Shown: positions 5,560 through 62,086, numbered from the stretch's first letter. The stretch: DNA of 64,000 bases from Patescibacteria group bacterium (GCA_038065355.1 JBBTRC010000008.1:5406-69405); one strand, 5' to 3'. Translations and numbers: made by a program. Notes: a model not told the origin generated them from the sequence alone.

Positions 5560-5563
5560 GTCC

Positions 5564-21164: not shown

Positions 21165-21166
21165 AT

Positions 21167-40151: not shown

Positions 40152-41483
40152 TCATTTACGCTTCTTGCGAACCTTTCGGGCTGATTTGACCTTCTCTCGA
40201 TGCAGTCGACGAGCTTCTTCTTTGGCTTTCCGCTCCTCCTCACGCTGTTTCATCTCCTCAGGCGGAACCACACGAAGATGATCCATGATTTTGTATCCCT
40301 TGAGGATTACGTACGGATCGCCAAAGTGATACCACGGATGCATCTGATTCCATTCCTTTCCATCTTTTACCTCCTTAACCATATGCGATTCAAGAAGCTT
40401 TTTCGGAGGCAGAAAATCCTTGTTGTCTTTGATCAGGAATAGCTGTGTATGCACACCCTCGCCATAATGAGTGACAGTGCGAGAATTGACGATACCTGCT
40501 CTAATCCACTTCTGGAGCGTCTGGCCTTTGACGTTGAAGTAGTGGTCGAAATCGTGTTTGGTATACCAACCGTCCTTGTTCTTTGCGAGAGACGCTGGTA
40601 TCTCCTTCTTGTCGATCGCCTTCTGGCAGACGAGGCACTTGATGCCGTACTGGTCGTACCAATTATCTCCCTCAGGAGTACTGTCTCCGCAGATGGCACA
40701 CCTATAGCCAACTCCTTCCCGATGAAAACCTTTGGGATTTTCTTCGAGTCTCTTATCTAGTGCTTTCTGCTTCTCGTCCCATTCCTCCATAAACTTACCA
40801 GCTCGCTCCATATTCCATTTTAGGTCTTGGAACTCTCGACCCTTCTCCTCAGTCAGACAGAAGCGGTCACGATCCTCGACAAAGTGTTCGTCGTACTCGT
40901 CTTCCGTCTTGGACCACACGTACTCATCCGTCTCTATATGCTTACACTTCGGACAAGTGTACGTGGTTACAATCTTTTCCTTATCATCGGTGACCGCTTC
41001 CTTGGTTGGATTGGCACACTTAGCACAAAGGTGAGGCTTAGATCGCCACTCCTCACCATCATTAAAAAATGCCCGACGTGGTAGGCACTTGTTCGGGCAT
41101 TCAAACATAAAGAGGACACGGTCTGGCTTGTCTTCGTCTCCGTGCCAAAGTTGCTTGTCTAAAACAGCGAGGCGGTTGCGACAGGTAAGGCAACGGATGT
41201 CTTCTGGTGGTTGTGCCGACTCCAGTAATTCATCTCGTTGTCGGTCTCGTTCCATCCACCCATTGATGGTCTTTTCCTTACTGAGGTATCGCTCACCCTT
41301 TTCAAACGTGAGCATCAGTTCATGGACGTAGTTCTTGACCGCCTCTGATTCTTTCTTGGTGACCTTCTTATCTTTCGGAATCTCAGTTTCGGATTGGGTC
41401 TTTTCAAGACGACGGCAACGCTCGACGGTATGCTTGTCGTATAGGTCTATGTAGTATTGTTTTGACTTAAGATGCTCTATCAC
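40152..41483 (-). CDS. Highly charged multi-zinc-ribbon protein with Lys/Arg-rich C-terminal tail
   Basis: 443 aa with at least six CxxC pairs (CLTCRN, CPNKC, CAKC, CPKCKH, CAICGD, CLVCQK). C-terminus EERKAKEEARRLHREKVKSARKVRKKRK. Confidence 0.5.
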   Translation of the reverse strand: MIEHLKSKQYYIDLYDKHTVERCRRLEKTQSETEIPKDKKVTKKESEAVKNYVHELMLTFEKGERYLSKEKTINGWMERDRQRDELLESAQPPEDIRCLTCRNRLAVLDKQLWHGDEDKPDRVLFMFECPNKCLPRRAFFNDGEEWRSKPHLCAKCANPTKEAVTDDKEKIVTTYTCPKCKHIETDEYVWSKTEDEYDEHFVEDRDRFCLTEEKGREFQDLKWNMERAGKFMEEWDEKQKALDKRLEENPKGFHREGVGYRCAICGDSTPEGDNWYDQYGIKCLVCQKAIDKKEIPASLAKNKDGWYTKHDFDHYFNVKGQTLQKWIRAGIVNSRTVTHYGEGVHTQLFLIKDNKDFLPPKKLLESHMVKEVKDGKEWNQMHPWYHFGDPYVILKGYKIMDHLRVVPPEEMKQREEERKAKEEARRLHREKVKSARKVRKKRK

Positions 41484-41529: not shown

Positions 41530-42231
41530 TTATTTTCCCTTCACCGCTTGTCCGATGTGCCACACCAGCCGTTCGTACGACCAGCGATCAAGTGCTCTTT
41601 GTCCACTGAGCATTGAGGTAAAGAACATCGGTATTTTCTTTCCACCTCTAGTGAACCAATGGAAGCCACGTTCTGCATCCCATGAGAGGTCATCCTTTAT
41701 GTATTCACGAAGTATCTCTGAAGCTGTCGCATTAGTTACCACGACACAGCGAGGTTCGGTCTGCACCAAGATCTCCTCAAACAGCTTGATCTGATCCATT
41801 CCGAATTCGTTAAGCTTGCCCTTGCTTCGCACACGGTTCATAAAACTGCTCTGAGAAGTTTCCTTGTATAGAAAGAGGTCGATGTGTTGCCACTCAAGCC
41901 CAACCTTCTTGGCAATCTCTATCGGTCTGCCGAAGTATTGGGAATAGTTCTGGTATGCATAGTTCTCCATCTTGATGCAGTCATCGATCAGTTTAGGGTC
42001 GGATGAGATATTCTGCCACTTGAAAAAAGTGACCATGTCGAAATCTGCGTACTCGGTATCCTTGAGTATCGTCCTGAATCCGCGAGCACTGAACGATGGG
42101 TTCATTCCGACAAACAGCAGTCGGTCTTTGTGTAGCTCGTCATAAAAAAGCGGAGCGTACACATCAGTGTTGCCAGTAAAGTGTCTATTCCAAAGGGCTA
42201 CTATTTTCTGATTGATTTCCGAATTTCTCAT
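41530..42231 (-). CDS. Hypothetical protein, possibly uracil-DNA-glycosylase-superfamily-like
   Basis: LLFVGMNPS resembles the UDG-superfamily GxNPG motif and there is a C-terminal TSMLSGQ, so the assignment is weak. Confidence 0.3.
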   Translation of the reverse strand: MRNSEINQKIVALWNRHFTGNTDVYAPLFYDELHKDRLLFVGMNPSFSARGFRTILKDTEYADFDMVTFFKWQNISSDPKLIDDCIKMENYAYQNYSQYFGRPIEIAKKVGLEWQHIDLFLYKETSQSSFMNRVRSKGKLNEFGMDQIKLFEEILVQTEPRCVVVTNATASEILREYIKDDLSWDAERGFHWFTRGGKKIPMFFTSMLSGQRALDRWSYERLVWHIGQAVKGK

Positions 42232-42882
42232 ATATTGCTCGTATAATCACACTTGGGATAGGTACTGCATCCCATAAATCTGCCGAACTTTCCCTTACGT
42301 TCAACCAGCTGTCCTCCGCACTTTGGACATACGGTATCAGCTACTGGCATCTCGACATTAGCAAGCTTCATGTACTCCATGAGCTTGAAGCGGTCAACGA
42401 GTTCAATGGGCTTTCCTTCCGCAAACTTCTCAGCGTCGAGCGTGAACACGTTGGTGGTTATGAAATACCCCTTACCACCATCAATCTTGTCTGCAATAGC
42501 ACCGTAGAAGTCACGTACAGCTCCGACAGGAACTTGGCGAGTGATGAACCTTGCACTGAATGTAATGGACAACGCCGTCCTTCTCAGCTTCAACGTCGAT
42601 ACCGCCATCACCTCTGCCACCGACTGTTTTCGTCTTGTACCCGAGAGAGCGGAAAAGCTCCTCGATATAGTTCTCGAATTGAGTTGGCGTGAGGTATTGG
42701 AGATCCTGTATTTTCTTCTTCCCGAGAAACCACTTGATCTTGCTTTTTCTATCTAGGAGATCCGTCAGTATCCTGAAAGAAAGTGCCAGAAGCAAAACAC
42801 CCCCTGCCATTAGGTAGAGTCCTTTGAATTGCCAAAAGCTTTTCAGTGTCTGTATTAAAATGTCTCCTAAATTGAATTCCAT
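42228..42882 (-). pseudogene. Frameshifted gene for a TM-anchored Mrr-type restriction endonuclease catalytic domain (Mrr_cat) fused to a topoisomerase-type C4 zinc finger
   Basis: ORF 42511..42882 carries GDGGIDVEA ... YIQCK (first half of Mrr_cat). ORF 42228..42620 in another frame continues with RFITRQVPVGAVRDFYGAI ... GYFITTNVFT (second half of Mrr_cat) and CPKCGGQLVERKGKFGRFMGCSTYPKCDY (zf-C4_Topoisom). The frames cross at about 42550 within an aagg run. Confidence 0.5.
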
Positions 42883-42896
42883 ATTTTTAAAATTAA

Positions 42897-44081
42897 TTAA
42901 GTCGTCTTTACTTCCTCAAGTTTTTCGTAGGTCATCAATGGTTCCGTGACTATTCCAGAAAAATACTCTTGGATATGTGGGTTATACCTGAACCATTCGG
43001 TTAACAATTCTTGAGCTAAACTTAGATCGAAGACCCCTTCCACAAGGAACATCTTGTGTCGTTTGCCAATTTTTTCGTCTAAATCCAATCCACTCTCTAT
43101 CTGATAATAGTATTTTTTATATTCGTCTAATTCAAATACACGCACCGCACCATCTAAATGTGTGAAGCACTCCTTTTTCTGGTCAAAACAGAAATGTGCA
43201 AATTTCTGAATAGAGTACTTCTCACCCATACCTGAAGACTTTCCGCCAAGTGGTGCTTCAACCGGACAGTATTCCTCAATCATGAACTCACGAAGTCCGT
43301 TGTCCATCATTTTTGTTCTAAAAACTGTATGCCTGACATCGTAACTCATGCAATGAACTCCACGGCTCGAATGTAATGTCCTTTCGTTACGATGCGAATC
43401 TTTCAGCAAAGACTCTGTAAAGGGCGGACCATACCAGTGATCGAACTCCATTATTTCTCTGTAGTTTTTTGCATCAGTAATTCTTAAGGGATCCAGTCTT
43501 ACAGAGACATTTGCTCCAGCGTCAAACGCCTTATCTAGTAAGGATGGCATACCAACAAAATGAGAAGAGTAGTATCTTCGAAGAAATTGATGGGGGTATA
43601 TCAATTTAGTGCCTCCAAAGATAATCCCGTGGTTCTTCATTTGTATACGATTATCAGAAAGATTCACAAGAAAATCATCACTGATTTCAATCTTCAATTC
43701 ATTAAAAAGTGATTGATCTAGAATATGCTCGACATGATCATCTAGTCGAAGTCCCTTTTTCTGTACAAGAGCCATGCTTATATGCATCGCGACTTTATCT
43801 AGATCAAGATTTTCCTTATCTTGTCCAAAAAATAAAGCGTAACTTAGCCATTCTGGCTTTGGTGTCAAACTAATAAGTTCTTTAAAATTATTTTCATCTG
43901 CTACAAAAGTCTTGATAAGCGAATATAATTTTGAGCAGTATTTTCCAATATCTGTTTTTGGATTATCCGATATAAAGACATGCATATCTACCAATGCAAA
44001 TAGATTTCGATTTGCCAGTTCAATAGCAATAGTATTTGTTATTTCATCTATTTCTTTATTATTTAATAATTTTTCCTGCAT
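42897..44081 (-). CDS. Hypothetical protein
   Basis: 394-aa ORF, no motifs. Confidence 0.45.
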   Translation of the reverse strand: MQEKLLNNKEIDEITNTIAIELANRNLFALVDMHVFISDNPKTDIGKYCSKLYSLIKTFVADENNFKELISLTPKPEWLSYALFFGQDKENLDLDKVAMHISMALVQKKGLRLDDHVEHILDQSLFNELKIEISDDFLVNLSDNRIQMKNHGIIFGGTKLIYPHQFLRRYYSSHFVGMPSLLDKAFDAGANVSVRLDPLRITDAKNYREIMEFDHWYGPPFTESLLKDSHRNERTLHSSRGVHCMSYDVRHTVFRTKMMDNGLREFMIEEYCPVEAPLGGKSSGMGEKYSIQKFAHFCFDQKKECFTHLDGAVRVFELDEYKKYYYQIESGLDLDEKIGKRHKMFLVEGVFDLSLAQELLTEWFRYNPHIQEYFSGIVTEPLMTYEKLEEVKTT

Positions 44082-44085
44082 ATGG

Positions 44086-44952
44086 TTAATACCAACAAAC
44101 TTCGGACTTGCTATCTGTCAGATTCTCCAAATATATTTCTGCCTCACGCAGACCACCAATATCATCAATTAGATGAAGTTCTTTTGCTCGCTCACCAAGC
44201 ACAGAAGATCCATCGGAAATAATTTCAACTTCAGTTAAGGGAATATTTCTATTGGTCGATACATCTGCAATAAAGTTCTGATGTACGATTTTAATATCTC
44301 TTAAAAATATCTGTCTTTCTTCCTCTGTGAGAGGACGATCAGGATCACCTGCATCTTTGTATTTTCCTGAACTCAATTGCACGTAGTCACTTCCATCTTT
44401 TTGATTTTTTCCTACGTTCTGGAGATAAGATGCTGTGACACCAATACTTCCAACATCAGAATTTTTGGAAGCAAAGATATAATCTGCACCTGTTACTGCC
44501 CAATAAGCCGCAGAGAGTCCACTTTGTCTTATTACGGCAACAGTAGGTTTCTCACTATTCTTAAGAGAATTGGCAACTTCCTCGCCAGCAACTGGTAAGC
44601 CTCCCAATGAATCAACCTCAATCAAGATTGCTTCAATAGCATCATCTTCATTTGCCTGCTTAATCAAATAGTTTATATCTTCACTTGCTACAATATCTTT
44701 GTCGATAAAAACATCGTCTTCACTTTGGGGTGGAATATATGTCCAAAGTGTTCCATGTAAATTAATACCCATAATCGAACAATCGTAGTCCTCATCTGAA
44801 TATTCATTGGAGGTTGCAATAAAGGGTGCCTTAATTACTCCATCGTAAATCGCATAGCTGACAATTGCTAATACGATAAATGACAATCCAAACCCTATCT
44901 TCTTTAAGACAATTCCTTTTCCATTCCAGATTTTTATTAGTTGATTATTCAT
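44086..44952 (-). CDS. Membrane-anchored S49-family serine peptidase (SppA / ClpP-fold; the same family as phage prohead proteases)
   Basis: N-terminal TM, and an S49 core with IDSLGGLPVAGEEVAN ... VIRQSGLSAAYWAVTGADYIFASKNSDVGSIGV (Ser nucleophile context). Confidence 0.65.
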   Translation of the reverse strand: MNNQLIKIWNGKGIVLKKIGFGLSFIVLAIVSYAIYDGVIKAPFIATSNEYSDEDYDCSIMGINLHGTLWTYIPPQSEDDVFIDKDIVASEDINYLIKQANEDDAIEAILIEVDSLGGLPVAGEEVANSLKNSEKPTVAVIRQSGLSAAYWAVTGADYIFASKNSDVGSIGVTASYLQNVGKNQKDGSDYVQLSSGKYKDAGDPDRPLTEEERQIFLRDIKIVHQNFIADVSTNRNIPLTEVEIISDGSSVLGERAKELHLIDDIGGLREAEIYLENLTDSKSEVCWY

Positions 44953-44955
44953 GAA

Positions 44956-45537
44956 TTAATATTGGTCAAATTGCGAAAGATCAACATCGCTTGCACTCGC
45001 TGTACCGCCAGTCACTTCATTTAATGTTACTTCCCATCCTGCTGACTGTGTAGCTGTTGTTTCAAACTCAAATGTCTCATCGAATGCAGAGGCGTGAGCA
45101 TTTCGATTGAATTTCTGCGTCGATGTATTCCAATCTGTTCCTTGTGCAAATGCAAGCCAATATGTACCGTCATCTATATTTTCCATTGTGTAAGTACTGT
45201 TGGCTTTGATGTATACAGTAAGTACTGAGGCACCGTCACGAATCAATTTTGCCACCGCGTCATAACTAGTTCCATTACTAATTTGCAACTGTCCTTCACC
45301 TTGCAAATACACACTTTGCTTCTTCAAGACAGTACCAGTCGGAAGCGAATTTCCTGGCGTAAGATCTGGAACCTGTACTGTCTCTTGCTGAGATGGCGTT
45401 CCTGGCGAAGGAGTTGGCAGAGGTGATGATGTGCTGGTGTCTTCCATAGCCCCCCAAATAATCAAACCAACAACAATTAGCCAGGACCACCAGCGGGCCA
45501 CAAATCGAAGAACGTCTTTTATTGATAAGTTTTGCAT
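44956..45537 (-). CDS. Secreted hypothetical protein
   Basis: N-terminal TM/signal (WWSWLIVVGLIIWGAM), followed by a Pro/Ser/Thr linker. Confidence 0.45.
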   Translation of the reverse strand: MQNLSIKDVLRFVARWWSWLIVVGLIIWGAMEDTSTSSPLPTPSPGTPSQQETVQVPDLTPGNSLPTGTVLKKQSVYLQGEGQLQISNGTSYDAVAKLIRDGASVLTVYIKANSTYTMENIDDGTYWLAFAQGTDWNTSTQKFNRNAHASAFDETFEFETTATQSAGWEVTLNEVTGGTASASDVDLSQFDQY

Positions 45538-45543
45538 AAAATA

Positions 45544-45864
45544 TTAATCATTATTTTTATAATGTTTTGGCGACCTAAAGAACAGAACCGCCACTACAAT
45601 ATCCACAACAGACCAAAGGAAGTGACCGAAATATAGTGGGTTGATCGGATTAAAAACAATAGCGATACCAATCATGATCAACATCCATTTCTTGTTCTTT
45701 TCTTTATGATAAAGATACACAGAGAATACAGCCGATCCAAAAACCACAAGTTTCAACGCTTGGTAAAAGAAATAAGGCCAGATTGGAATTACAGCAACAA
45801 GCAAAACAATGGCCGCAATCTTTGAGAATAGTATTCGATATTCGCTTTGTTCTTTGGTTACCAT
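45544..45864 (-). CDS. Small polytopic membrane protein
   Basis: 106 aa, three hydrophobic segments. Confidence 0.4.
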   Translation of the reverse strand: MVTKEQSEYRILFSKIAAIVLLVAVIPIWPYFFYQALKLVVFGSAVFSVYLYHKEKNKKWMLIMIGIAIVFNPINPLYFGHFLWSVVDIVVAVLFFRSPKHYKNND

Positions 45865-45869
45865 ATTTT

Positions 45870-47048
45870 TTACGATCGTTCTAAATCACCGAATTGACTA
45901 TAGTAGGCAATTTCCTCGACTGAAATCGAAGGGGTAAATTTTTTGATTGCATTAATCAACATTTTTTCATTGACCATTTGCTCATCCTCTAATACTGCCG
46001 CACGAGCCGCTTCGGTTACGATAAGCTCAATATCTGATCCTACATAGTTCTCAGACATCTTAGCGAGCTTTTCAAAATCAATTTTTTTATCATAAGGTCG
46101 ACCTGAGAGACAGATTTTAAATAAGTCCCTCCGTGCTTCTAGGTCTGGTGGTCCAACAAATATACGCTTGTCCATTCGTCCAGATCGTAAGATTGCCGTG
46201 TCGATCATGTGAGGACGGTTTGTGGCTCCCACAACTAAGATTTTACTGCTACCAGCATTGTTAAGCTGGAGGAGAAACTCGTTGATTTCTTCTTTCTTAA
46301 TATCTGCGGATGAACTGAGTTCTTCTCGCTTTGGGATAAGACCCTCGATCTCATCAATAAAGACAATTGATGGTGCCTGCAGTCTTGCCATCTCAAAGAC
46401 TTTGCCAATATTTCCAACGGCACCGTGCACATATGACGTGGCAACAGAAGATGGATTCATTTCTATAAAACTGTACCCAAGTTGTTCAGCCAACTTTTTA
46501 ACAATAAAGGTCTTCCCACATCCAGGAGGTCCGAACAACAAGATACCGTTAGGGATACCTAGCTTAAATTTCTTATACTTCTCTGGGTTCATGAGTGGCT
46601 CAATCACATCATTCATAAGCATTGCTTTGAGGGGCCTCATTCCTGCAACACAATCAAAACCTCGCAAGACAGTCAGGTCATCGATGATTGCAGTAATCTT
46701 GTCGTGAGAATGCTCGTCAGTTATAACACCGAGGTATTTTTTACCGCTTATTTCGAGATGTACGAGATCGTACTTTTGACTACGGTCAATAATCTCATCC
46801 TGTTGGATGTTGGTAAATAAATAGAGGAACTTATCATTTGAAAGCGAATACACCTCAGTGAAAAAAATCTTTTCTACACGAGCAACCACACTCAATTTAT
46901 CTTTGAGTTTGTAGCCTGGGTGTAAAAGTGGTTTTGTTGGATTTGTCATATATTTATATTTAATAAGGTGCTGTACATATGTATTTACCGTCCTCGACGT
47001 AACCGGCATATCTACTATTTCGACCCACATCTTTTTCACATATTGCAT
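45870..47048 (-). CDS. Classical-clade AAA+ ATPase (CDC48/FtsH/SpoVK-like single AAA module)
   Basis: Walker A GILLFGPPGCGKT, Walker B SIVFIDEIEGL, SRH ATNRPHMIDTAILRSGRMD. The likely true start is Met34 at 46949, just after the upstream stop. Confidence 0.8.
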   Translation of the reverse strand: MQYVKKMWVEIVDMPVTSRTVNTYVQHLIKYKYMTNPTKPLLHPGYKLKDKLSVVARVEKIFFTEVYSLSNDKFLYLFTNIQQDEIIDRSQKYDLVHLEISGKKYLGVITDEHSHDKITAIIDDLTVLRGFDCVAGMRPLKAMLMNDVIEPLMNPEKYKKFKLGIPNGILLFGPPGCGKTFIVKKLAEQLGYSFIEMNPSSVATSYVHGAVGNIGKVFEMARLQAPSIVFIDEIEGLIPKREELSSSADIKKEEINEFLLQLNNAGSSKILVVGATNRPHMIDTAILRSGRMDKRIFVGPPDLEARRDLFKICLSGRPYDKKIDFEKLAKMSENYVGSDIELIVTEAARAAVLEDEQMVNEKMLINAIKKFTPSISVEEIAYYSQFGDLERS

Positions 47049-47823
47049 TTATCGATGCTGTACTAACACACGAGTTTCTCTCAATGTCCCAGTCATATCC
47101 ATATCCACAATCGCACACTCGTTTCCCATCTTCCGTAGTCGAATAAGCACCAGTTCCATAACTATTCACGCACGACTGATTGAACGAGCTAAGGGAATAA
47201 CATGCAGTTCGCCCGCTATCCCAGTAAGAACCAACTTCACAATCACATATGTTTTTTCCGTCAGCAGGATCTACTTTAAGGAAACTTGTCCCTGGCCACT
47301 GTGAAGCACAGCTTTCATCACGTGCAACTGTGAAGTTTACGCACTGTTGCGAGGTAGCACCTAAGGAATATCCAGCTGTACAACCGCAAGAATTCGTAGC
47401 ACTATCATATGTTGCATTGTATCCATTACGCTCCTGACAAATTTCTAGAGGAGTTTGAACCACAGGAGTTGTTTGTGTCCTTTCGGCTACTGGAACGTAG
47501 GAATTTGTATCTGTCTCTGCTTCGACATCTGTTTCTGAAGTATCAAAAATATCATTCAATGATTCGCTATTTGAGGGTGGGGGCAAAGTATTAGTCGTTG
47601 CTGTGCTATTACTATCTCCACTACTGGCACTTACAGCAATAATAATTATTAAAACTCCAAGAGCAATCGCTCCCAGTGTCCATTTAGCACCATCTGACAT
47701 TGCTGACTCATCAACCGTCGATTTATGTGACGGTTGATGAGATCCCTTCTTTTCTGATTTTTTAGGAGCACCTTCCCCAAGGAAGTCCAAATCAAGTTTT
47801 AGTTTTTTATCTTTATGCTCCAT
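46960..47823 (-). CDS. Membrane-anchored extracytoplasmic cysteine-rich protein
   Basis: Lys-rich N-terminus, one TM (LGAIALGVLIIIIAVSA), Thr/Ser-rich linker, and a C-terminal domain with at least 16 Cys in repeated CxC/GY patterns. Confidence 0.45.
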   Translation of the reverse strand: MEHKDKKLKLDLDFLGEGAPKKSEKKGSHQPSHKSTVDESAMSDGAKWTLGAIALGVLIIIIAVSASSGDSNSTATTNTLPPPSNSESLNDIFDTSETDVEAETDTNSYVPVAERTQTTPVVQTPLEICQERNGYNATYDSATNSCGCTAGYSLGATSQQCVNFTVARDESCASQWPGTSFLKVDPADGKNICDCEVGSYWDSGRTACYSLSSFNQSCVNSYGTGAYSTTEDGKRVCDCGYGYDWDIERNSCVSTASINAICEKDVGRNSRYAGYVEDGKYICTAPY

Positions 47824-47828
47824 AGTTT

Positions 47829-48542
47829 TTATTCAAATAATGCACTGGCAATGACCAATACGTAGAAAATTGCAGGCGCAACAACGAACCAGAATATACC
47901 TCGACCTTTCTGCACATGCATGACTTTTTTCACACCCTGATAACTAATATAAATTGAGTAGCCGATTGCCAAGAGAGAAAGAATTCCAAAAATAACATCC
48001 ACACTGGATGCTTCTGAATAATAGAGATCAAAATAATCACTGCCGTAAGCAACGTGATTAAGGAGCAGAGAACCAATAGCTGTCACTGAAATTGGGAGAG
48101 AAGAAAAAGTATAGATATTTCGGGCTGTATCGATAGTGCCAGATCCTTTTGACCATCCGACTCGAACATGATAGAACCAGCCACCGATGTAATAAGCAAT
48201 TGCTCCAGATAAGATACCTCCGAATAGAGCAATCGCCCAAACTTCACCCCAACTAGAGGATTCAGAGCCAGTAAGTCGATCCGCTGCACTCCCGATACCA
48301 AGAATCCAAATCGCCAAAAGTAGGTATTTTGGATTAGATGTAACCAGATGTTTCTGTGCGAATTCGCTAAAGTTTGTAAAACAGTCTTTAAAATACTCAA
48401 AGAATTTAACTCTATCTGCACTAGGAACAGACGTAGGCTCTGGGGTTGCGACTGGAACACTAGTTTGCTCCCCAGCTTTTTGTGGACTTTTGTCTAAGAA
48501 ATCAAAATTTAAAGATTTTTTCTCGTTCATATATTTATCCAA
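47829..48542 (-). CDS. Polytopic membrane protein (Yip1-like topology)
   Basis: Soluble N-terminal ~60 aa, then 5 TM helices. Confidence 0.4.
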   Translation of the reverse strand: MDKYMNEKKSLNFDFLDKSPQKAGEQTSVPVATPEPTSVPSADRVKFFEYFKDCFTNFSEFAQKHLVTSNPKYLLLAIWILGIGSAADRLTGSESSSWGEVWAIALFGGILSGAIAYYIGGWFYHVRVGWSKGSGTIDTARNIYTFSSLPISVTAIGSLLLNHVAYGSDYFDLYYSEASSVDVIFGILSLLAIGYSIYISYQGVKKVMHVQKGRGIFWFVVAPAIFYVLVIASALFE

Positions 48543-50130
48543 AGATTGCTCCTAAAACAATTATAATAATAATCCACACGACCCAGCCGATCACACTCGA
48601 CTTTGTGTTCTCTGCTTTTTTATTTTTAATCACTTCACCAAGTCCTACGTAATAGTAGGAGTTGAGAAGGATCTTAATTGCCATCTGCTCCCAGCGTTCA
48701 TCGAATGCCTCATCGATTTTCTTCAACATCTTATTTTGAACCTCATCCACTTCACTTGCATTATCCGCAGTAAGAACCTTAACGTTGTTTTTAATCAAAT
48801 CTAGCCAGGAGTCGATTACGCTCTTGTCTACATCATAAATTTCAATGTGTTCATACACAATCGATGCTGATTTTTGAAGTCCAGGTCGAGCCTCGTCGTA
48901 TTTATCAGCTTCAAATAACTTCTTCGCCTCAACGAACTCGACCACAGCATACATCGTAACAGCTTCCTTTTTCTTGCTATCCATCGCATTTTTAAATTCT
49001 GGATCTTTGCTCTCAGACTTCTTTTGATCTATGAGTGCTATCGCTTCTTGGAACTTCTTCTCATTCATGAGTTCCATGATTGGAGCTGTTGCATTTAAGA
49101 ACTTCTTATTTTCTTCAAATTGGTCGAGATCCTGCTTAAGTTTGTTTTCCATCCCAGATGTACCAACAAACTGCATAGCAATCTTTAGAAGTTGCTCAGC
49201 TTTGGGCATATCGTCCAAATTATTGTGGATATCAAGAACAATAGAACGTATCGCACCCGCCGCTCGGTCACGTATCGTTTTTGATTGACTGTCATCATAT
49301 AGACCGAGATCGATCAGCTTGTTGCAACAATCTTGGATTTTTCCGATATGTTCTTTGATATCTGAAGCTTCTTGTGCATCAAGGTCACCATCCTCTGAAA
49401 CCTTCATTGCTTCGAGCTTCTCGACCGCTTCTGTAATCTCCTGAAATATTGGAGCCATTACAACTTTCTCAGTCTTTTCTCCACGAAGATTAAATACTTT
49501 AGTAAATTCAGCTATGTAACCTCCATCCTCTCGAGAATGACTAATCTCTGTATAAAGATCAGAGAGAAATGAGGGTATCTGTTTATGAAAATCAGAGATA
49601 ACTTCTTGATCAGTATCAAGCTCATCGTTATGCTTATATACCTTTGTGAAAGCTGTCCAGAATTTTGATGAGTTAGTAAGCTCGTGCCAGATTTTTAAAG
49701 ACTCTTTTAGATATCGTTTATTGTCTTCTTTGAAAAGTAAGATGCAATACAGAAGCGCTAGATTCTTTTTATAAAACATCGCCTTTGTAGTATCGCCTTC
49801 GGAATTATGTTCCCAAACCCTTATAGCTCCTTCTGGATCTTTCTTACGAAGAATACCGACCGCTTGTTCGTCTACATCGTCAGAAATATGAAACCAGAAG
49901 AAATAATCCTTAATCTGCTTCTTTGGTGAAGAGAGTTTTTGAACAGCGTCCTTTATTGCACCTTCCGTTCGAAAGTTATCGAACACTCCCATATCTAGGT
50001 CGTATTCTGGAGTATCATCAATTTGGAGAAACTTTACAATTTCCTTTGCACGTTTCTGCATATCTCGTTGTGAAGCCGACGTGTCGAGACCGAGGATGTG
50101 ATATGCATTATTTTTTAATAGGTTTGACAT
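48535..50130 (-). CDS. J-domain-like protein with degenerate HPD motif and long helical C-terminal region; putative co-chaperone of adjacent Hsp70
   Basis: N-terminus NAYHILGLDTSASQRDMQKRAKEIVKFLQIDD aligns to the J-domain helices II-III (Y.ILG...AS...I.KAY.KL....HPD) but has IDD where HPD should be. Its start overlaps the next gene by 8 nt and lies 4 nt below the Hsp70 stop codon. Confidence 0.45.
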   Translation of the reverse strand: MSNLLKNNAYHILGLDTSASQRDMQKRAKEIVKFLQIDDTPEYDLDMGVFDNFRTEGAIKDAVQKLSSPKKQIKDYFFWFHISDDVDEQAVGILRKKDPEGAIRVWEHNSEGDTTKAMFYKKNLALLYCILLFKEDNKRYLKESLKIWHELTNSSKFWTAFTKVYKHNDELDTDQEVISDFHKQIPSFLSDLYTEISHSREDGGYIAEFTKVFNLRGEKTEKVVMAPIFQEITEAVEKLEAMKVSEDGDLDAQEASDIKEHIGKIQDCCNKLIDLGLYDDSQSKTIRDRAAGAIRSIVLDIHNNLDDMPKAEQLLKIAMQFVGTSGMENKLKQDLDQFEENKKFLNATAPIMELMNEKKFQEAIALIDQKKSESKDPEFKNAMDSKKKEAVTMYAVVEFVEAKKLFEADKYDEARPGLQKSASIVYEHIEIYDVDKSVIDSWLDLIKNNVKVLTADNASEVDEVQNKMLKKIDEAFDERWEQMAIKILLNSYYYVGLGEVIKNKKAENTKSSVIGWVVWIIIIIVLGAIFG

Positions 50131-50133
50131 AAA

Positions 50134-52647
50134 TTATTTAGTAATACCAGACATGTTACCTTGTATCATTTTCTGCTCGCTCGGCGGAAGGAGAAGCATC
50201 AGGTTGTGTACCGACCTTTTAAGTTCCTCAACATCGCCAAGCTCAAGGGCACGCTGTCCTTTATTCATGTAGTACTCAGCCTCTTTCGGACTTGTCCAAG
50301 CATGACTAGTTTCCTTTATCTTATTGAACATATAGACCCATGATGCAGGATTTGAGAAAAGTGCCTTATGATTGAGTTCTTGAAGCTGTTCCAATGAACG
50401 GCTGAGCATTACCTTGTCCTCTTTACCAATAGCCAGATCAGCTTCTTCCTTGATCACACGCAACTGGTCTTCGTACATTGCTTTTTCTGTCTGTTCACTC
50501 CATTCACTAATAATTCCTTCTACACTTTTTACCTTTTCTTCGTATTCTGATTTAAGCTGTGGAAACTCTTTCATCTTTTCGAGACCATCGAGCCGGATTT
50601 TTAGATCTTTGAGTTGTTTATCAGCCTTTCGTTTTTCATCCTCATCCACTTTTGCAGTCGATAGACTTCCTTCAAGAGACTGGACCAGATTCTGAAGCTT
50701 ACCTTTCTCTTCTGGAGTACATGATTGTTCGACTTTTTTCGCACGCTCGCTCTGCTCCTTGAGCTGTGTCTCCATTTCTTCGACACTCAAATTTTCTGCA
50801 TGGATTGTCGCACGTGCACTAAACGTGAGATCAATCGACGGAATAAACGCCTCCACCTTAACCTCACGAGATTCGTTCACCTCGATTGTAAGTGCAATTT
50901 CTGTACCTTCTGGTAAATCATATGGGAGTTTTTCTCCTGTCACCTTGAGGTCACAAATGAACTGATTCTGATCTGGCACAGCTGATTCACCTTCACGGAT
51001 TTTGATCGGGAGTGCGTTCTCTTTATCACCTTTGGCAAGCGGTTTAAGTGTCTTATATGTATGTGTGGCTTTGAGGGGAAGAATACTATTTTTCTCAAAA
51101 ATCACTTCAAACTCCTCGGTCATAGCAAAGCTAGCACCACTGAATCCACGCTTTACAACTCCTACTCCTATGGAGTGTGGTATCGGTGCACCAGACACTG
51201 AAAGACCGTGCGTTATAGAGAACGCCTCTGGTTCGGTTTTGATCGGGTTTCCTTCTGCATCGAACAAGTAAATCCAAAAGAGAGTAGTTTTGTTTTTATC
51301 GAGATTTACAGTTTCAATAAATTTGCCATTCTTAAGTTTTATTTTCTTTCCGCTAAAGAGTCCTCCCTCGCTCTGTATCTGAATGAAGTATTCTTCTTCT
51401 GTATCCTTAAGCTCTTCTACGACTCCAGTTATGGTCTCTTCGGTTTCGGAAGTCAGGGATTCATAGTTGAGACGCAAGGTTTTAATTGAGGAATCAGTTA
51501 ACTTTTTTGACTCAAGAAATTCCTTTGGAATCTTCTGGCTCACAGCATAGATACATGCACCACGCGCAACGACGGTTAGTGGATCGGACGAAGTGTCTAC
51601 TTCTATCTTCAAGTCTTTTTCCAAACGATCTTTTACGTACGGAATCATAGTAGGTCCGCCAACAAGTACAATCCTTGAAATGGATGATTGCTTCACTCCA
51701 GCCTCCTTAATGGTCTCCTTACTCAATTCAACAGTTTTATCGACAAACGGTTTAATCAGCTTTTCGAAATCTTTACGGGTAAAAGGTATAGTGAGATATA
51801 TTTCCTTGTTGTTGTCATCATCACCGATCTTTTCAACCTCGATAGTTATTTCATCAGTTTGAGAAAGTGAAATCTTTGCCGTCTCTGCATAGTATTTAAG
51901 CTTTGCAAACACACTACGATATTTTTTACTACTACGAGTAAAGTCTTCGATTTCATACTTTTCTAGAATAGCTGGTACGATGACCTTATCCACAACAGCC
52001 CAATCGAAATCTTTACCACCAAGGAAGTTGTCTCCATTATGCCCTAGTACAGAAAGTGCACCGTCCTTTGACGAAATGAGGGCAACATCGAACGTACCGC
52101 CTCCCAAGTCATACACAAGCCAGTTTTCATTCTGAGAATTCATAAAACCGTAAGCTATTGCCGCCGCAATCGGTTCCTGTATTAAGACCACATGCTTGAA
52201 GCCCGCAACATTACCCGCACGCTTGGTGGCTTCTGCTTGAAGCGTTGAAAAATAGGCAGGTATCGTGATGACAACACCAGTGGTTGGTGTGCCAGGATAC
52301 TTACGCAAAACATCTTCTTTAAGGCTCTTTAAAATTTCTCCAGAAATTTCTTCTGGAGACATATCCTCACCAAGACGATCGAAATGGACGGTGTCCGAAG
52401 TACCCATCAAGCGTTTTACTTCCGCCTTGTTATTTGAAAATTCTTCTTCTGATGCGTCTTTATAGAGACGCTCATAGGCTCGTTTTCCGACAACTTTATT
52501 TTTTGCTTTATCTACGCCAAAAACTGACGGCGTGTATTCATCATTAAAAATATTTTTAACCACCTCCACATGGTTTTTATTGTTTGCTGCAACTTCGGAA
52601 TTTGTTGTACCTAGGTCGATACCAATCTGTATGTTTTGGTTGTTCAT
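50134..52647 (-). CDS. Atypical Hsp70-family ATPase (DnaK-like NBD+SBD with about 200-aa coiled-coil C-terminal extension)
   Basis: IGIDLGTTNSEVA phosphate-1 motif, DLGGGTFDVALIS, and IVLVGGPTMIPYV. 837 aa compared with about 640 for DnaK. Confidence 0.8.
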   Translation of the reverse strand: MNNQNIQIGIDLGTTNSEVAANNKNHVEVVKNIFNDEYTPSVFGVDKAKNKVVGKRAYERLYKDASEEEFSNNKAEVKRLMGTSDTVHFDRLGEDMSPEEISGEILKSLKEDVLRKYPGTPTTGVVITIPAYFSTLQAEATKRAGNVAGFKHVVLIQEPIAAAIAYGFMNSQNENWLVYDLGGGTFDVALISSKDGALSVLGHNGDNFLGGKDFDWAVVDKVIVPAILEKYEIEDFTRSSKKYRSVFAKLKYYAETAKISLSQTDEITIEVEKIGDDDNNKEIYLTIPFTRKDFEKLIKPFVDKTVELSKETIKEAGVKQSSISRIVLVGGPTMIPYVKDRLEKDLKIEVDTSSDPLTVVARGACIYAVSQKIPKEFLESKKLTDSSIKTLRLNYESLTSETEETITGVVEELKDTEEEYFIQIQSEGGLFSGKKIKLKNGKFIETVNLDKNKTTLFWIYLFDAEGNPIKTEPEAFSITHGLSVSGAPIPHSIGVGVVKRGFSGASFAMTEEFEVIFEKNSILPLKATHTYKTLKPLAKGDKENALPIKIREGESAVPDQNQFICDLKVTGEKLPYDLPEGTEIALTIEVNESREVKVEAFIPSIDLTFSARATIHAENLSVEEMETQLKEQSERAKKVEQSCTPEEKGKLQNLVQSLEGSLSTAKVDEDEKRKADKQLKDLKIRLDGLEKMKEFPQLKSEYEEKVKSVEGIISEWSEQTEKAMYEDQLRVIKEEADLAIGKEDKVMLSRSLEQLQELNHKALFSNPASWVYMFNKIKETSHAWTSPKEAEYYMNKGQRALELGDVEELKRSVHNLMLLLPPSEQKMIQGNMSGITK

Positions 52648-52659
52648 AAAATATATTCC

Positions 52660-53181
52660 TTAGTTACTTAATAATATGATCTTGGCCTTTTTAACGACCT
52701 GACCTTTAACCAAAATTGTTGGCTCAACGGTTTCTTTCACCACAGGCGATACCACGGTAGGATCTTTTTCTACCGAGAGAACATCTAGGTTCAGTCCGTC
52801 ATTGAATTTCTGATTGGTGTAATCAATAATCTCAATGTCGTAATTGGATATATACCGTCTAAACTTGAGGACAGAATTCTCTAACCCCTTTCGTTGGTTT
52901 TCCTGAAGACTGTCAGCAATTTTTAATAATCGTTGTTCAACTCGCCACACTTCTGTCGCAAGTTCAACGAGTTCAGCGACGCTCGTAGAAAGATTTATAG
53001 ATTTGGGAGCAACAGCGTATTTAATTTCCTCGCTAATCTTTTTGTAGAGTTCATCAAATTTATCTGAAGCTTCTGTACTCTGCCCTGATTTGCGTCTAAG
53101 TAAATATAGAAATGCAAATATAAAAAATATCGCAATTACGAGAACGAGTATAAATATTGGATTTAAAAATAAGTTATTCAT
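52660..53181 (-). CDS. Membrane-anchored hypothetical protein
   Basis: N-terminal TM (LNPIFILVLVIAIFFIFAFLYLL), followed by a helical region. Confidence 0.4.
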   Translation of the reverse strand: MNNLFLNPIFILVLVIAIFFIFAFLYLLRRKSGQSTEASDKFDELYKKISEEIKYAVAPKSINLSTSVAELVELATEVWRVEQRLLKIADSLQENQRKGLENSVLKFRRYISNYDIEIIDYTNQKFNDGLNLDVLSVEKDPTVVSPVVKETVEPTILVKGQVVKKAKIILLSN

Positions 53182-53182
53182 T

Positions 53183-53518
53183 TTATTTCATTAACTCGTC
53201 AGTAGGGACACCTACTGCTTTAGCCAATTTGGCAATGGTTGCGAGAGTGGGGTTTGTCTTACCATTCTCGATATTGCTTATAAAGCTTCGACTGACCTCA
53301 AGTTCCCGAGCAATATCACCCTGAGAGATATTCTTTGCTGTTCGGATACGCTTAAGGTTATTACCTAATTTTTCTGACTCGCTTTTCATAATCTCACTAT
53401 ACGCTCTGTTATAGTTTAACACAACAGTATCATATAGTGTACTACCTCCAGAGTGTTCTAGTTGTGCAGAAAGTATGCTCATGATAATTCGACTTTCTCT
53501 CTTAAATCTTGGAAGCAA
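53183..53518 (-). CDS. XRE-family HTH transcriptional regulator (Cro/CI-like)
   Basis: C-terminal HTH_3: LKRIRTAKNISQGDIARELEVSRSFISNIENGKTNPTLATIAKLAKAVGV. Confidence 0.65.
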   Translation of the reverse strand: MLPRFKRESRIIMSILSAQLEHSGGSTLYDTVVLNYNRAYSEIMKSESEKLGNNLKRIRTAKNISQGDIARELEVSRSFISNIENGKTNPTLATIAKLAKAVGVPTDELMK

Positions 53519-54075: not shown

Positions 54076-54177
54076 TTTGGACGGTTTTAGTTTCGGTCAG
54101 GTAGCAAAAAGCTCCTAACCAGGCCGATATACCCCGTGAGATATACCCATACCCCTTTCGAGATATGACCGTCCAAA
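54076..54177. repeat. MITE-like 102-bp element bounded by 10-bp terminal inverted repeats (tttggacggt ... accgtccaaa) in the divergent control region
   Basis: TIRs are exact reverse complements. The interior contains gatataccc x2 and gagatat x2. It begins 4 nt upstream of the start codon of 53479..54072. Confidence 0.4.
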
Positions 54178-54203
54178 GTAGCTCTGATTAGGAGTTCTTT
54201 ACT

Positions 54204-54260
54204 TTGGACGGATTTTCGACCATATCCGAAAAGTTTTAAGGCTTTTCGGGGTTAGGTCTC
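54204..54260 (+). repeat. Copy A of direct repeat ttggacggNttttcgaccatatc ... gggttaggtct, upstream of the DGR target gene
   Basis: Shares a 23-nt core and an 11-nt 3' box with copy B at 57328..57376. The core is also the near-palindromic partner of the MITE-like element's right end. Confidence 0.4.
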
Positions 54261-54547: not shown

Positions 54548-55348
54548 ATGATGTCGATGAAAACATTGAACACGTCTGCACTGGTAACCGCAGACAGTCC
54601 GAAAGGACAGAGAGCTACCGAAACGTTCCGTGCCCAATACAACAAGGCGGGACTCAACGACGAAAGCGCACAAATCCTGAACGAGAATCCCGGCTTCGCC
54701 GTGTATCTCGCCGAAGGTATCCGTCGCTTCTCAGCCAAAGCGCCCGACTACGGTTTGGCGCAGTCAATCCTCGGCACGGATTTCATCACGCCAGAGGAAG
54801 TCAGCAAGGCTCGCCCGAGCATCGTGTACACCGACGACCAGATCACGGCACTCGCCGAAAGTCTGCCGTCGGAAGACATGCTCAAGTGGTGCAAGGACAA
54901 CGGTTACGCCGTCATGCCCGCACCGCCCACGGCGATGTCACTGCTCGACGTTCGGGAGATCCAGTCCACCCACTTCTACTCGAAGACGGGTGGGTGGTAT
55001 TCCGACCAGAAGTTCGCTCGCGAAGACAGGACGTCTTTCGGATGGCTCGCCATCAAGAAGACTCCGATCTCCGACTCGACCAGCAAAAACTGGAACGAGC
55101 AGAACAAGCTTCTGTCCGCACTCGAGACGGTGCCTAACGCCGCCGAGATGAGCTGGTTCATCACGACCTATTTCGAGGTCCGTGGTATCCGACTCTTCGA
55201 AAGCATCTACGTTCGGACTTCCAGTCTCGGCTCGGGCGGTGGCCGTGTTCTCGTCGGCAGCTTCGTTTCCGGGGGTCTCATCGTCAACGACTGGGACGGC
55301 GACCGCCGCGACAGCAACATCGGCTTGTCGGGTGCCAGGAAGCAGTGA
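54548..55348 (+). CDS. DGR target (variable) protein; C-terminal variable repeat in a presumed C-type-lectin/FGE-like fold
   Basis: The last ~40 codons (VR) are a near-copy of the downstream TR, differing only at TR adenines. It ends ... NIGLSGAR, resembling the conserved CLec-fold VR terminus. AGGAG RBS at 54543 fits best with the ATG at 54557. Confidence 0.7.
   Translation: MMSMKTLNTSALVTADSPKGQRATETFRAQYNKAGLNDESAQILNENPGFAVYLAEGIRRFSAKAPDYGLAQSILGTDFITPEEVSKARPSIVYTDDQITALAESLPSEDMLKWCKDNGYAVMPAPPTAMSLLDVREIQSTHFYSKTGGWYSDQKFAREDRTSFGWLAIKKTPISDSTSKNWNEQNKLLSALETVPNAAEMSWFITTYFEVRGIRLFESIYVRTSSLGSGGGRVLVGSFVSGGLIVNDWDGDRRDSNIGLSGARKQ
55225..55339 (+). repeat. DGR variable repeat (VR)
   Basis: 115-bp alignment to TR (offset +477) with 17 mismatches, all where TR has A. 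The last 26 bp are identical and GC-rich (IMH-like). Confidence 0.8.
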
Positions 55349-55701
55349 TCCTTGATCCCTTGAGGACTTGTTCCTCTTGAATACTTGAGCCTTCGCGAAA
55401 TTTTTTTTCGCGAAGGCTCTTTCTTTTTATACATAAACAAAATATACTCTTATTATCTTGCTCATGTAGCTTGGATCACGGTTCAAGCTCGCGAGATACC
55501 TCACCTGAGAACTGCCTGAGTGCCATTAGTCTACGGATTACGGCAGAGCGCAGTAAAGGATAGAGAGAACTTCTTGCCTGTTTCTAGTGGAGATGTCTTT
55601 GAAAAAAGACTGCTCCCAAATAAAATTCAGAGATGGGAGGATATAGACCTGTAAAGGTAGTAAACCTCGATTCTCGGTGACACAGACGGAAATGGGCAAT
55701 A

Positions 55702-55816
55702 TCTCGACTCGGACGGTAACCGTGTTAACGTCGGCAACTTCGATTCCAAGGGTCTCAACGTCAACAACTGGAACGACGACAACCGCAACAGCAACATCGG
55801 CTTGTCGGGTGCCAGG
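55702..55816 (+). repeat. DGR template repeat (TR)
   Basis: Non-coding copy of the VR, rich in AAC codons in the VR frame (gacggtaaccgtgttaacgtcggcaacttcgattccaagggtctcaacgtcaacaactggaacgacgacaaccgcaacagcaac). Confidence 0.8.
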
Positions 55817-55836
55817 CAGTCATAACTCTATCCAAG

Positions 55837-55861
55837 GAAAACCCACGTAATGTGGGTTTTC
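55837..55861. terminator. 10-bp hairpin gaaaacccac-gtaat-gtgggttttc immediately 3' of TR and 3' of avd (opposite strands)
   Basis: Exact reverse-complement arms, with a T-tract on the plus strand and an A-tract on the minus. Confidence 0.4.
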
Positions 55862-55863
55862 TG

Positions 55864-61693: not shown

Positions 61694-61699
61694 ACTTCC

Positions 61700-62080: not shown

Positions 62081-62086
62081 AGGGTA

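Follow-up and report, generated by a model that had tools for sequence, protein, structure and literature searches.

The locus we investigated raises the question of what an Hsp70, its co-chaperones, an AAA+ ATPase and a set of membrane proteins do together on a mobile element. It lies in a stretch of 64,000 nucleotides from a Patescibacteria group bacterium (GCA_038065355.1 JBBTRC010000008.1:5406-69405), hereafter the window. An initial annotation, made from the sequence alone, described positions 44086-53181 as a tightly packed operon of nine co-directional minus-strand genes that encode, among others, an atypical Hsp70, a J-like protein without the His-Pro-Asp (HPD) motif, an AAA+ ATPase and a peptidase of family S49. 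The coordinates and the tight spacing hold: in the list of open reading frames (ORFs) of the window the minus strand carries 9/9 of these genes, and neighboring genes abut or overlap, with spacings of -8 to +12 nt. We propose that the genes represent a mobile module of Patescibacteria, in which a private Hsp70 machine held at the membrane and a Cdc48-like AAA+ ATPase act on the module's own membrane proteins, which are marked by a short N-terminal tag. We give this reading an even chance of being correct.

Conservation of the module

For each of the Hsp70 and the 531-aa J-like protein, Patescibacteria bins and contigs contain hundreds of relatives with matching length. We fetched 100 related loci, reduced these to 78 distinct ones (cited below by L numbers), and annotated them with tblastn and with hidden Markov models built from the first 20 loci. 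Genes in these loci were called by simple ORF heuristics, and the taxonomic labels are those of metagenome bins, which may be wrong in places. Recurrence of the gene order outside the window was a check set beforehand, and the same order is found in the 78 distinct loci: an XRE-type regulator (where present), the GrpE-like gene, the Hsp70 gene, the J-like gene, one or more genes for tagged membrane proteins, the AAA+ gene, and then, where present, DUF6804 and distal accessory genes. Because this order recurs in so many distinct loci, the block is a conserved unit, far beyond a chance cluster.

Components were counted only where a contig reaches far enough. The Hsp70 and the GrpE-like gene are each present in 56/56 loci, the AAA+ gene in 42/42 and DUF6804 in 27/38. 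Of the 56 loci with enough upstream sequence, 32 have an XRE-type gene immediately before the GrpE-like gene; the regulator is therefore frequent, not universal. The idea that all nine genes form one fixed unit did not survive this comparison: the S49 peptidase (7/25 loci), the secreted 193-aa protein (5/25), the Yip1-family protein (7/25) and the Cys-rich protein (6/25) are exchangeable accessories. A single-pass helical protein of about 200 aa with two invariant cysteines, which is not encoded in the window, is found in 20/25 loci. The core of the module consists of the GrpE-like protein, the Hsp70, the J-like protein, at least one tagged membrane protein and the AAA+ ATPase, usually with DUF6804, and the window holds an extended subtype of this five- to six-gene core.

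The borders of the row in the window are less uniform. Of the two genes said to lead the block, the XRE regulator stands; the 197-aa gene that was called nuclease-like, with a putative D...ExK pattern read by eye, has no Pfam match and is not kept with the block in related loci. At the distal end, a 394-aa ORF extends the row 4 nt past the S49 gene, with no family match and no counterpart in related loci. Within the row, the 89-nt overlap between the Cys-rich and AAA+ genes points to an over-extended ORF call for the latter: the homologues begin at the residue that matches the ATG at 46949, and with this start, 10 nt past the upstream stop, the overlap is gone. A scan for promoters and terminators was uninformative, with promoter-like sites below those of shuffled sequences and weak terminator-like matches within genes.

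The Hsp70 and its co-chaperones

In the AlphaFold2 (AF2) model of the Hsp70 (mean confidence, pLDDT, 79.5) a nucleotide-binding domain (NBD; residues 1-370) is followed by a beta-rich insert of about 90 residues (389-478), the beta part of the substrate-binding domain (SBD-beta; 493-614) and a helical lid (622-837), and Foldseek aligns the model with full-length DnaK (E 4e-36). The helical C-terminal extension noted in the initial annotation is thus present, with a length of about 215 residues, and the insert between the NBD and the substrate-binding domain had been overlooked. In the sequence alignment to DnaK structures the NBD is matched, and the second half of SBD-beta is matched weakly. 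The linker (479-487, THGLSVSGA) is a low-confidence part of the model and differs from the VLLLD of DnaK. An alternative placement by MAFFT, which matched VLLLD to IYLFD (459-463), was dropped, as the AF2 model shows a strand of the inserted domain at this position.

The catalytic positions D8, T11, K70, E171, D194, T199 and D201 (DnaK numbering here and below) are invariant in 40 family members, and the loop at the position of the DnaK "GrpE signature" (DnaK 290-295; signature as given in PMC8215388) is retained, not deleted. From its sequence and model, the protein is predicted to be ATPase-competent and to possess both a substrate-binding domain and a lid. The substitutions R167V, N170Q, T173I, D481S and R151A/S are fixed across the same 40 members. 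In the numbering of the 837-aa protein, positions 167, 170 and 173 correspond to V154, Q157 and I160, and K70 corresponds to K78. In the allostery of DnaK, N170, T173, R151 and D481 relay the signal of the J-domain. R167 of DnaK and D35 of the J-domain's HPD motif are joined by a hydrogen bond (PMC8215388).

The replacement of these residues has its counterpart in the J-like protein, for which no Pfam match was found at E 0.01. As the initial annotation had it, the partner is without HPD: hhalign places Y43-D-L-D46 of the J-like protein on Y32-H-P-D35 of DnaJ, with Y43 and D46 invariant in the family. Among 103 N-termini of the family, HPD is absent in 101, and in the other two it occurs elsewhere in the sequence. 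The body of the protein is all-helical and TPR/MIT-like, TPR fusions occur in relatives, and a C-terminal membrane segment (513-531) is predicted to form a tail anchor. At the level of sequence, the missing HPD of the partner and the missing R167 and relay residues of the Hsp70 look like the two sides of a co-evolved, re-wired interface. In L001/L002, an ankyrin-repeat protein with a canonical DnaJ domain (PF00226) is encoded 2.6 kb downstream of the module (20843-21598, minus strand); it may serve the same Hsp70 as an additional J-protein, this one with HPD, or have no connection with it.

The first gene of the module had been described as a transmembrane coiled-coil protein. Its membrane anchor stands, and its identity is revised to a GrpE-type exchange factor: 14/15 family members match Pfam GrpE, with a best E of 2.4e-9, and judged by these profile matches the assignment to GrpE (PF01025) holds at the level of the family. 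The predicted N-terminal membrane segment (residues 9-27) has basic residues on its C-terminal side, which suggests that the GrpE-like domain is cytoplasmic. This factor, which the initial annotation overlooked, completes the Hsp70 triad.

Tagged membrane proteins

The strongest functional clue, likewise overlooked before, is a common N-terminal tag of the membrane proteins. In all related loci, this tag opens each protein whose gene lies between those for the J-like and AAA+ proteins, and its consensus is (K/E/D)(K/H)(L/I)x(L/I)(D/N)(L/F)(D/E)-F-L-D-(K/E), with the short form h-(D/N)-h-(D/E)-F-L-D. An example of the tag peptide with its linker is MEHKDKKLKLDLDFLGEGAPKK. Where the sequence continues for 1.2 kb or more past the J-like gene, the tag is found in 63/63 loci (61 by pattern, 2 by eye); its F and L do not vary (95/95 tags), and the off-target rate is 1 among 2141 plus-strand ORFs.

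The 103 distinct tag carriers comprise 53 single-pass helical two-Cys proteins, 26 Yip1 proteins and 15 Cys-rich proteins; the remainder are a few polytopic fusions, RDD-like proteins and one beta-rich protein. The carriers thus come from five or more unrelated families, are essentially all membrane proteins, and number one to three per module. Between the tag and the first membrane helix lie 25-131 residues (median 39), and the tag is predicted to be on the cytoplasmic side. In the Cys-rich protein of the window the predicted membrane segment (49-67) has basic residues on its N-terminal side, which suggests an N-in/C-out orientation with the Cys-rich repeats outside the membrane. The membrane segments and orientations predicted here agree with the description in the initial annotation. 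The extracytoplasmic proteins diverge fastest among the components; the Cys-rich protein is among the fastest, with 49-54% identity where the Hsp70 has 79-90%. A tag so placed, at the end of a flexible tail, fits a site where a cytoplasmic machine docks or starts to act.

The AAA+ ATPase and the distal accessory proteins

The family labels Yip1, AAA+ and S49 given initially are all matched by Pfam (E values in Table 1). In the AAA+ protein AAA_lid_3 is matched as well (3e-10), and the AAA domain aligns strongly with those of Cdc48, p97 and VAT (domain scores of about 140 bits). The sequence contains a Walker A motif (GPPGCGKT), a Walker B motif (DEIE), an aromatic-hydrophobic pore loop (Y-V-H-G) and the arginines of the second region of homology. 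For the N-domain of about 96 residues there was no match among PDB sequences. The protein stays under the NCBIfam cut-offs for PAN, Cdc48, FtsH and IteA, with PAN the best at 185 bits; the IteA_antiphage model reaches 114 vs 510 bits, and the PAN, Cdc48 and FtsH models score above it. The PADLOC match to IetA (6.3e-35), as well as one to TRIP13, reflects generic AAA+ similarity. From these motifs and scores the protein is predicted to be a soluble, single-ring, Cdc48/PAN-like ATPase with intact motifs.

The S49 protein (PF01343, 102 vs 24.9 bits) contains the Ser (GLSAAYW) and Lys (GKYKDAG) motifs and a membrane segment at residues 13-31, and it scores 135.7 bits against TIGR00706, under the cut-off of 155.45. 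It is a member of Peptidase S49 and not an SppA equivalog, with a catalytic domain predicted to be outside the cell. The initial annotation named an unfoldase-type AAA+ protein and a protease. We rejected a ClpXP-like pair of the AAA+ protein and the S49 peptidase, as the two are predicted on opposite sides of the membrane, the AAA+ protein inside and the S49 domain outside, and as S49 is optional. Distal hydrolases also vary between loci: a membrane-anchored trypsin-like peptidase replaces S49 in L005, and in L015 a secreted SNase nuclease is encoded upstream of the S49 gene. The secreted beta-rich protein of the window has a membrane segment at 9-27, and its relative in L055 is tagged and encoded directly after the J-like gene. 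For DUF6804, a literature search found no paper that mentions it. In PHROGs the module matches only generic Hsp70, AAA and S49 families, the last being PHROG 53, head maturation protease (2.5e-34).

Comparison with known systems

Like the DnaK-DnaJ-GrpE system, the module encodes an Hsp70 with intact ATPase site, substrate-binding domain and lid, a GrpE-family factor and a partner whose N-terminal domain is putatively J-like. Unlike in the DnaK system, both co-chaperones are membrane-anchored and D-L-D replaces HPD; R167, N170, T173, D481 and R151 are lost, a beta-rich domain is gained, the lid is enlarged and the VLLLD linker is unrecognizable; and an AAA+ ATPase and tagged membrane proteins are encoded together with the chaperones on a mobile element. 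The HscC-DjlB/DjlC systems of E. coli share with the module a specialized, sporadic and probably horizontally spread Hsp70 with a co-evolved J-type partner. These J-proteins are membrane-located, and the systems have been suggested to chaperone transmembrane proteins (PMC8215388). HscC has 550-580 aa, deletions in the NBD and partners with HPD, and is thought not to use GrpE (PMC8215388). When the module is set against this description of HscC, it differs in its 837-aa Hsp70, the adjacent GrpE-like gene, the HPD-less partner and the AAA+ companion.

Two eukaryotic machines offer analogies of layout. The mitochondrial presequence translocase-associated motor (PAM) consists of mtHsp70, Tim44, Pam18, the HPD-less J-like Pam16, and Mge1/GrpE. 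As in the module, an Hsp70 works at the inner face of a membrane with membrane-bound J and J-like proteins, a GrpE-type factor and an HPD-less J-like domain. However, homology is limited to the Hsp70, J and GrpE folds, and in place of a conserved channel the module has a Cdc48-like AAA+ ATPase and tagged single-pass proteins. In yeast endoplasmic-reticulum-associated degradation of the ERAD-C type, the Hsp70 Ssa1, the tail-anchored Hlj1 and Cdc48 act together, and short linear motifs in cytosolic tails recruit Cdc48. The combination of a cytosolic Hsp70, a tail-anchored J-type co-chaperone and a Cdc48-type AAA+ ATPase at the membrane is shared by analogy. Unlike Cdc48 in ERAD-C, the AAA+ protein of the module has a single ring and an unrelated N-domain; a ubiquitin system and a cytosolic protease are absent, and the operon itself encodes the candidate clients or adaptors.

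Among defense systems, IetAS (IetA with the S8 protease IetS) shares with the window a classical-clade AAA+ ATPase encoded with a serine protease, but the protease here is S49 and not S8, is predicted outside the membrane and is optional, and the IteA model falls far below its cut-off. Hsp70 homologues are also known from type III CoCoNuT systems, where CnuD occurs with a McrB-type NxD GTPase and McrC/CnuC (PMC11090510), and from the GAP1-N2/DO GTPase systems, which combine Hsp70, GrpE and DnaJ-FNIII (PMC7159879). These, too, are non-housekeeping Hsp70s in mobile or defense contexts, sometimes with diversity-generating retroelements (DGRs) (PMC11090510, PMC7159879). In both, the ATPase motifs of the Hsp70 are often degenerate, whereas the ATPase residues of the module are invariant. 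We rejected CoCoNuT and other GTPase-centered Hsp70 systems as an identity for the module, as neither the block in the window nor the conserved families of the 78 loci contain a GTPase or McrBC.

Reviews distinguish three types of prokaryotic Hsp70 and describe other DnaK derivatives as unexplored "dark matter" (PMC8215388, PMC13580251). The literature we searched on Hsp70 defense and conflict systems, non-canonical Hsp70s, J-proteins, Patescibacteria and CPR (candidate phyla radiation) elements does not describe the module, which is an absence in that literature and not proof of novelty. Together with PADLOC, these searches leave in place the earlier statement that the row matches no described defense or secretion system. 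By analogy, the module would work like a specialized Hsp70 system, with HscC and DjlB/DjlC as the nearest bacterial example and a layout that resembles PAM and ERAD-C. We regard it as a dedicated Hsp70 system, and there is a real possibility that it is something more distinct.

Proposed role of the module

In the mechanism we propose, the membrane-anchored GrpE-like factor and the tail-anchored J-like protein would hold the Hsp70 machine at the cytoplasmic face of the membrane, where it would be coupled to the AAA+ ATPase. The tag would serve as a docking handle and recruit the cytoplasmic ATPases to the tagged membrane proteins; the helical body of the J-like protein, the substrate-binding domain of the Hsp70 and the N-domain of the AAA+ protein are candidate receptors. 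ATP-driven binding to, or pulling on, the N-terminal tails could then hold, gate, assemble or extract the tagged proteins, and would thereby control display and opening at the cell envelope. The extracytoplasmic hydrolases encoded at the distal end (S49, trypsin-like, SNase) may be exchangeable outputs or sensors, as may the variable outer domains. Because the module travels on integrative elements beside defense-type genes, its likeliest role is in genetic conflict or in maintenance of the element (phage exclusion, abortive infection or addiction), and this is the least supported step of the proposal.

Several observations weigh against this proposal. The J-domain reference alignment used with hhalign and the E. 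coli DnaK reference behind the residue numbering were both entered by hand. The hhalign match of the J-like protein to J-domains is only moderate (probability 72%, E 3.3e-5, 57 columns), the N-terminal profile finds six matches in the PDB, all of them J-domains, at weak E values of 0.075-1.3, and the AF2 model has its helices in the expected order but a pLDDT of 43-67 over residues 1-70 (below 65 for 1-60). The GrpE-like copy in the window scores 17.6 bits (E 0.0033), under the Pfam cut-off of 25.8 bits, and the profile of its family finds no GrpE among PDB sequences, so that it would be a divergent member. All loci were retrieved via the Hsp70 or the J-like gene, and the co-occurrence percentages are therefore conditional on these genes. 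PADLOC, run on all ten proteins of the block, returns only the generic AAA+ matches. The core contains no classical effector, that is, no nuclease, NADase or pore-former of a known family. Finally, the defense-type neighbors are, in raw counts, a minority of the flanking genes.

An anti-phage abortive-infection or exclusion system would be a specific form of the proposal rather than a strictly exclusive alternative to it. The Hsp70 and the AAA+ ATPase would keep tagged effectors (Yip1, RDD and two-Cys proteins) inactive or extracted, until an infection titrates or disables the chaperones, or is sensed by the outer domains; the effectors would then be released and the membrane damaged or sealed. 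On integrative elements the module indeed adjoins AbiEii/AbiEi, SoFic, Schlafen-AlbA_2, methylases, Mrr, a Gabija-like OLD+UvrD pair and a DGR, it is sporadic and horizontally transferred, and its divergence is fastest in the extracytoplasmic parts. The upstream XRE regulator, the resemblance of the AAA+ protein to IetA in PADLOC and the occurrence of Hsp70/GrpE/J modules in other predicted conflict systems (PMC7159879, PMC11090510) point the same way. However, PADLOC recognizes no core component beyond that generic AAA+ similarity, the IteA score is low, no toxin is recognizable in the core, and the GTPases and McrB that define the known Hsp70 conflict systems are absent; the support comes from the neighborhood, as raw counts. 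We consider this form of the proposal rather unlikely. A motor for polypeptide translocation, in which the Hsp70 is tethered at a channel (Yip1, RDD or Tic20-like) as in PAM or Sec63/BiP and the AAA+ ATPase is a second motor, would explain why the layout at the cytoplasmic face is that of PAM at the matrix face, why polytopic membrane proteins occur in the operon and why the pore loop of the AAA+ protein appears threading-competent. It is nevertheless improbable: the most common tagged partner is single-pass (53/103 tagged ORFs) and polytopic proteins are optional, which leaves no conserved channel; the match to Tic20 is sub-threshold (E 0.0066), and cargo genes are not evident.

The two remaining explanations are less probable still. 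The PHROG 53 match of S49, the terminase and serine recombinase in the window and the one IMG/VR contig that carries the module could be read as signs of a phage morphogenesis cassette, with a phage chaperone set and an S49 prohead protease for virion assembly. This is very improbable, as S49 is membrane-anchored with its domain predicted outside the cell, is found in only 7/25 loci and can be replaced by a trypsin-like peptidase; moreover, the flanks of the module in related loci are free of capsid, portal and tail genes. In tblastn, the J-like protein has no match in 50,697 phage records or in sequenced plasmids, and scans of IMG/VR (by single protein and by alignment) find the module in 1 of 2.9 million contigs. 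The co-occurrence search in IMG/VR suggested with the initial annotation therefore yields one contig only, against more than 100 metagenome contigs. An ordinary housekeeping set, composed of DnaK/DnaJ/GrpE paralogues and an FtsH-like protease, has almost no probability and is already contradicted, although its parts belong to the Hsp70, GrpE and AAA families. The proteins stay under all NCBIfam equivalog cut-offs: the Hsp70 reaches 270 vs 648 bits (NF001413) and 265 vs 822 (TIGR02350) for DnaK and 242 vs 620 and 230 vs 708 for HscA, and the AAA+ protein reaches 168 vs 600 for FtsH, with neither a membrane segment nor a Peptidase_M41 match. HPD is lost, the residues of the J interface of DnaK are replaced, the GC content is atypical, sequences are near-identical across CPR classes, and the recombinase and tRNA flanks suggest a mobile element. 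The initial view that this is not a housekeeping arrangement is thus well founded.

Within the reading of a membrane-held Hsp70 machine that acts on its own tagged proteins, a bolder claim is possible, though on the doubtful side. The module would contain a fourth prokaryotic type of Hsp70 beside DnaK, HscA and HscC, with a re-wired J interface (HPD to DLD; R167, N170 and T173 replaced), which holds or dislocates tag-marked membrane proteins together with a Cdc48-like AAA+ ATPase. It would then be a ubiquitin-free counterpart of ERAD and a chaperone-gated envelope switch of CPR mobile elements, for example in phage defense or addiction. If so, the module represents a complete, self-contained fourth Hsp70 arrangement with its own exchange factor, and it offers a natural re-design of the otherwise near-universal contact between HPD and R167. 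We found no description of an Hsp70 paired with a Cdc48-like AAA+ ATPase at a bacterial membrane. The short invariant tag on unrelated membrane proteins provides an immediate experimental handle, and the module is an abundant cargo of integrative elements in Patescibacteria, a group whose mobile-element and defense biology is poorly known.

The carrier element and neighboring genes

The features of the window are collected in Table 1. The GC content is 0.36-0.47 at about 38-54 kb and 0.38-0.41 in the operon, and about 0.50 on both flanks. The "phage-like" carrier of the initial annotation finds support in the window, where a terminase, two methylases, a complete DGR and a large serine recombinase are present; for the module at large the term fits only loosely, with a single IMG/VR contig among its carriers.

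Table 1. Position and annotation of features in the window; positions are counted from its first nucleotide. HTH, helix-turn-helix; TM, transmembrane segment.
Feature	Position	Strand	Remarks
443-aa zinc-ribbon-rich ORF	40152-41483	-	
Mrr_cat nuclease fused to topoisomerase-type zinc ribbon	42228-42882	-	two overlapping ORFs
394-aa ORF	42897-44081	-	
S49 (SppA-type) serine peptidase, membrane-anchored	44086-44952	-	Peptidase_S49 3.3e-29
Extracytoplasmic beta-rich protein, membrane-anchored, 193 aa	44956-45537	-	weak SdrD_B match only
DUF6804 small membrane protein	45544-45864	-	PF20619 6.5e-21; 5 nt after AAA+ gene
Classical AAA+ ATPase	45870-47048	-	AAA 2.1e-33; likely start 46949 (359 aa)
Cys-rich single-pass membrane protein, tagged	46960-47823	-	no Pfam match
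Tag of Cys-rich protein	47776-47808	-	translation KKLKLDLDFLG
Yip1-family polytopic membrane protein, tagged	47829-48542	-	Yip1 3.3e-12
Tag of Yip1 protein	48492-48521	-	translation KKSLNFDFLD
J-like tail-anchored protein, 531 aa	48535-50130	-	J-like N-terminus, helical body, C-terminal TM (predicted)
Hsp70, 837 aa	50134-52647	-	PF00012 5.4e-82
GrpE-like, 173 aa	52660-53181	-	first module gene
XRE-type HTH regulator	53183-53518	-	HTH_3 5.6e-18; directly upstream of GrpE-like gene
LOOT RNA	54126-54258	-	Rfam RF03000, 79 bits
DGR, complete	54548-57266		
DGR target gene	54548-55348	+	variable repeat 55225-55342
DGR template repeat	55702-55819		mismatches all at template adenines
DGR bAvd	55864-56265	-	
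DGR reverse transcriptase	56193-57266	+	
Two N6/N4 DNA methylases	57803-59083, 59007-59819	+	with the next three entries, a phage-type gene row (57803-63436)
HTH_Tnp_1_2 protein	59812-60234	+	may be small terminase
Terminase_6C protein	60212-61693	+	
Large serine recombinase	62087-63436	+	Resolvase + Recombinase + Zn_ribbon_recom; element context, outside operon

The serine recombinase of the window shares 58-61% identity with those next to the module in L011 and L018. In three loci a large serine recombinase abuts or overlaps a tRNA gene (L003 3694-5351, L015 755-2520, L016 7084-8619), and in L006 about 130 nt separate a tRNA gene (8994-9064) from the XRE gene downstream of it; within the window there are no tRNA genes. 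The tRNA genes are likely the integration sites of the carrying element, which in its usual form resembles an integrative element whose serine recombinase gene neighbors a tRNA gene. Of 150 proteins encoded at most 2.8 kb from the module (47 loci), nine are serine recombinases and four tyrosine integrases; these flanks also hold AbiEii/AbiEi, SoFic, Schlafen-AlbA_2, methylases, Macro, NYN and RadC. The IMG/VR contig carries its Gabija-like OLD+UvrD pair upstream of the module.

The Hsp70 is 88-98% identical among bins labelled Saccharibacteria, Uhrbacteria and Paceibacterota, and identities are mosaic between the chaperone and AAA+ halves of the module. The near-identity across CPR classes and the mosaic identities point to horizontal spread and to recombination. 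The Omnitrophota and Bacteroidales labels on L013 and L017 are probably binning errors and not evidence for a spread outside Patescibacteria; the label of L017 is doubtful because its per-gene identities equal those of the Gracilibacteria locus L016.

Downstream of the row, the Mrr-type gene is split into two overlapping ORFs, which looks like a frameshift, from pseudogenization or an error in sequencing. In L005, the IMG/VR contig, a relative with 35% identity to the 443-aa zinc-ribbon-rich ORF (5510-6178) lies immediately upstream of the module. On the other side, 54 nt upstream of the leading 197-aa gene, lies a LOOT RNA, on which a literature search found almost nothing published. LOOT is found within about 1.3 kb of the module boundary in 5/14 scanned loci, with the other copies at L003 8244-8361, L015 7053-7166, L007 18702-18820 and L013 16916-17040. 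Because these copies occur on either side of the module and in either orientation, LOOT looks like a companion of the mobile element and not like the leader of the operon.

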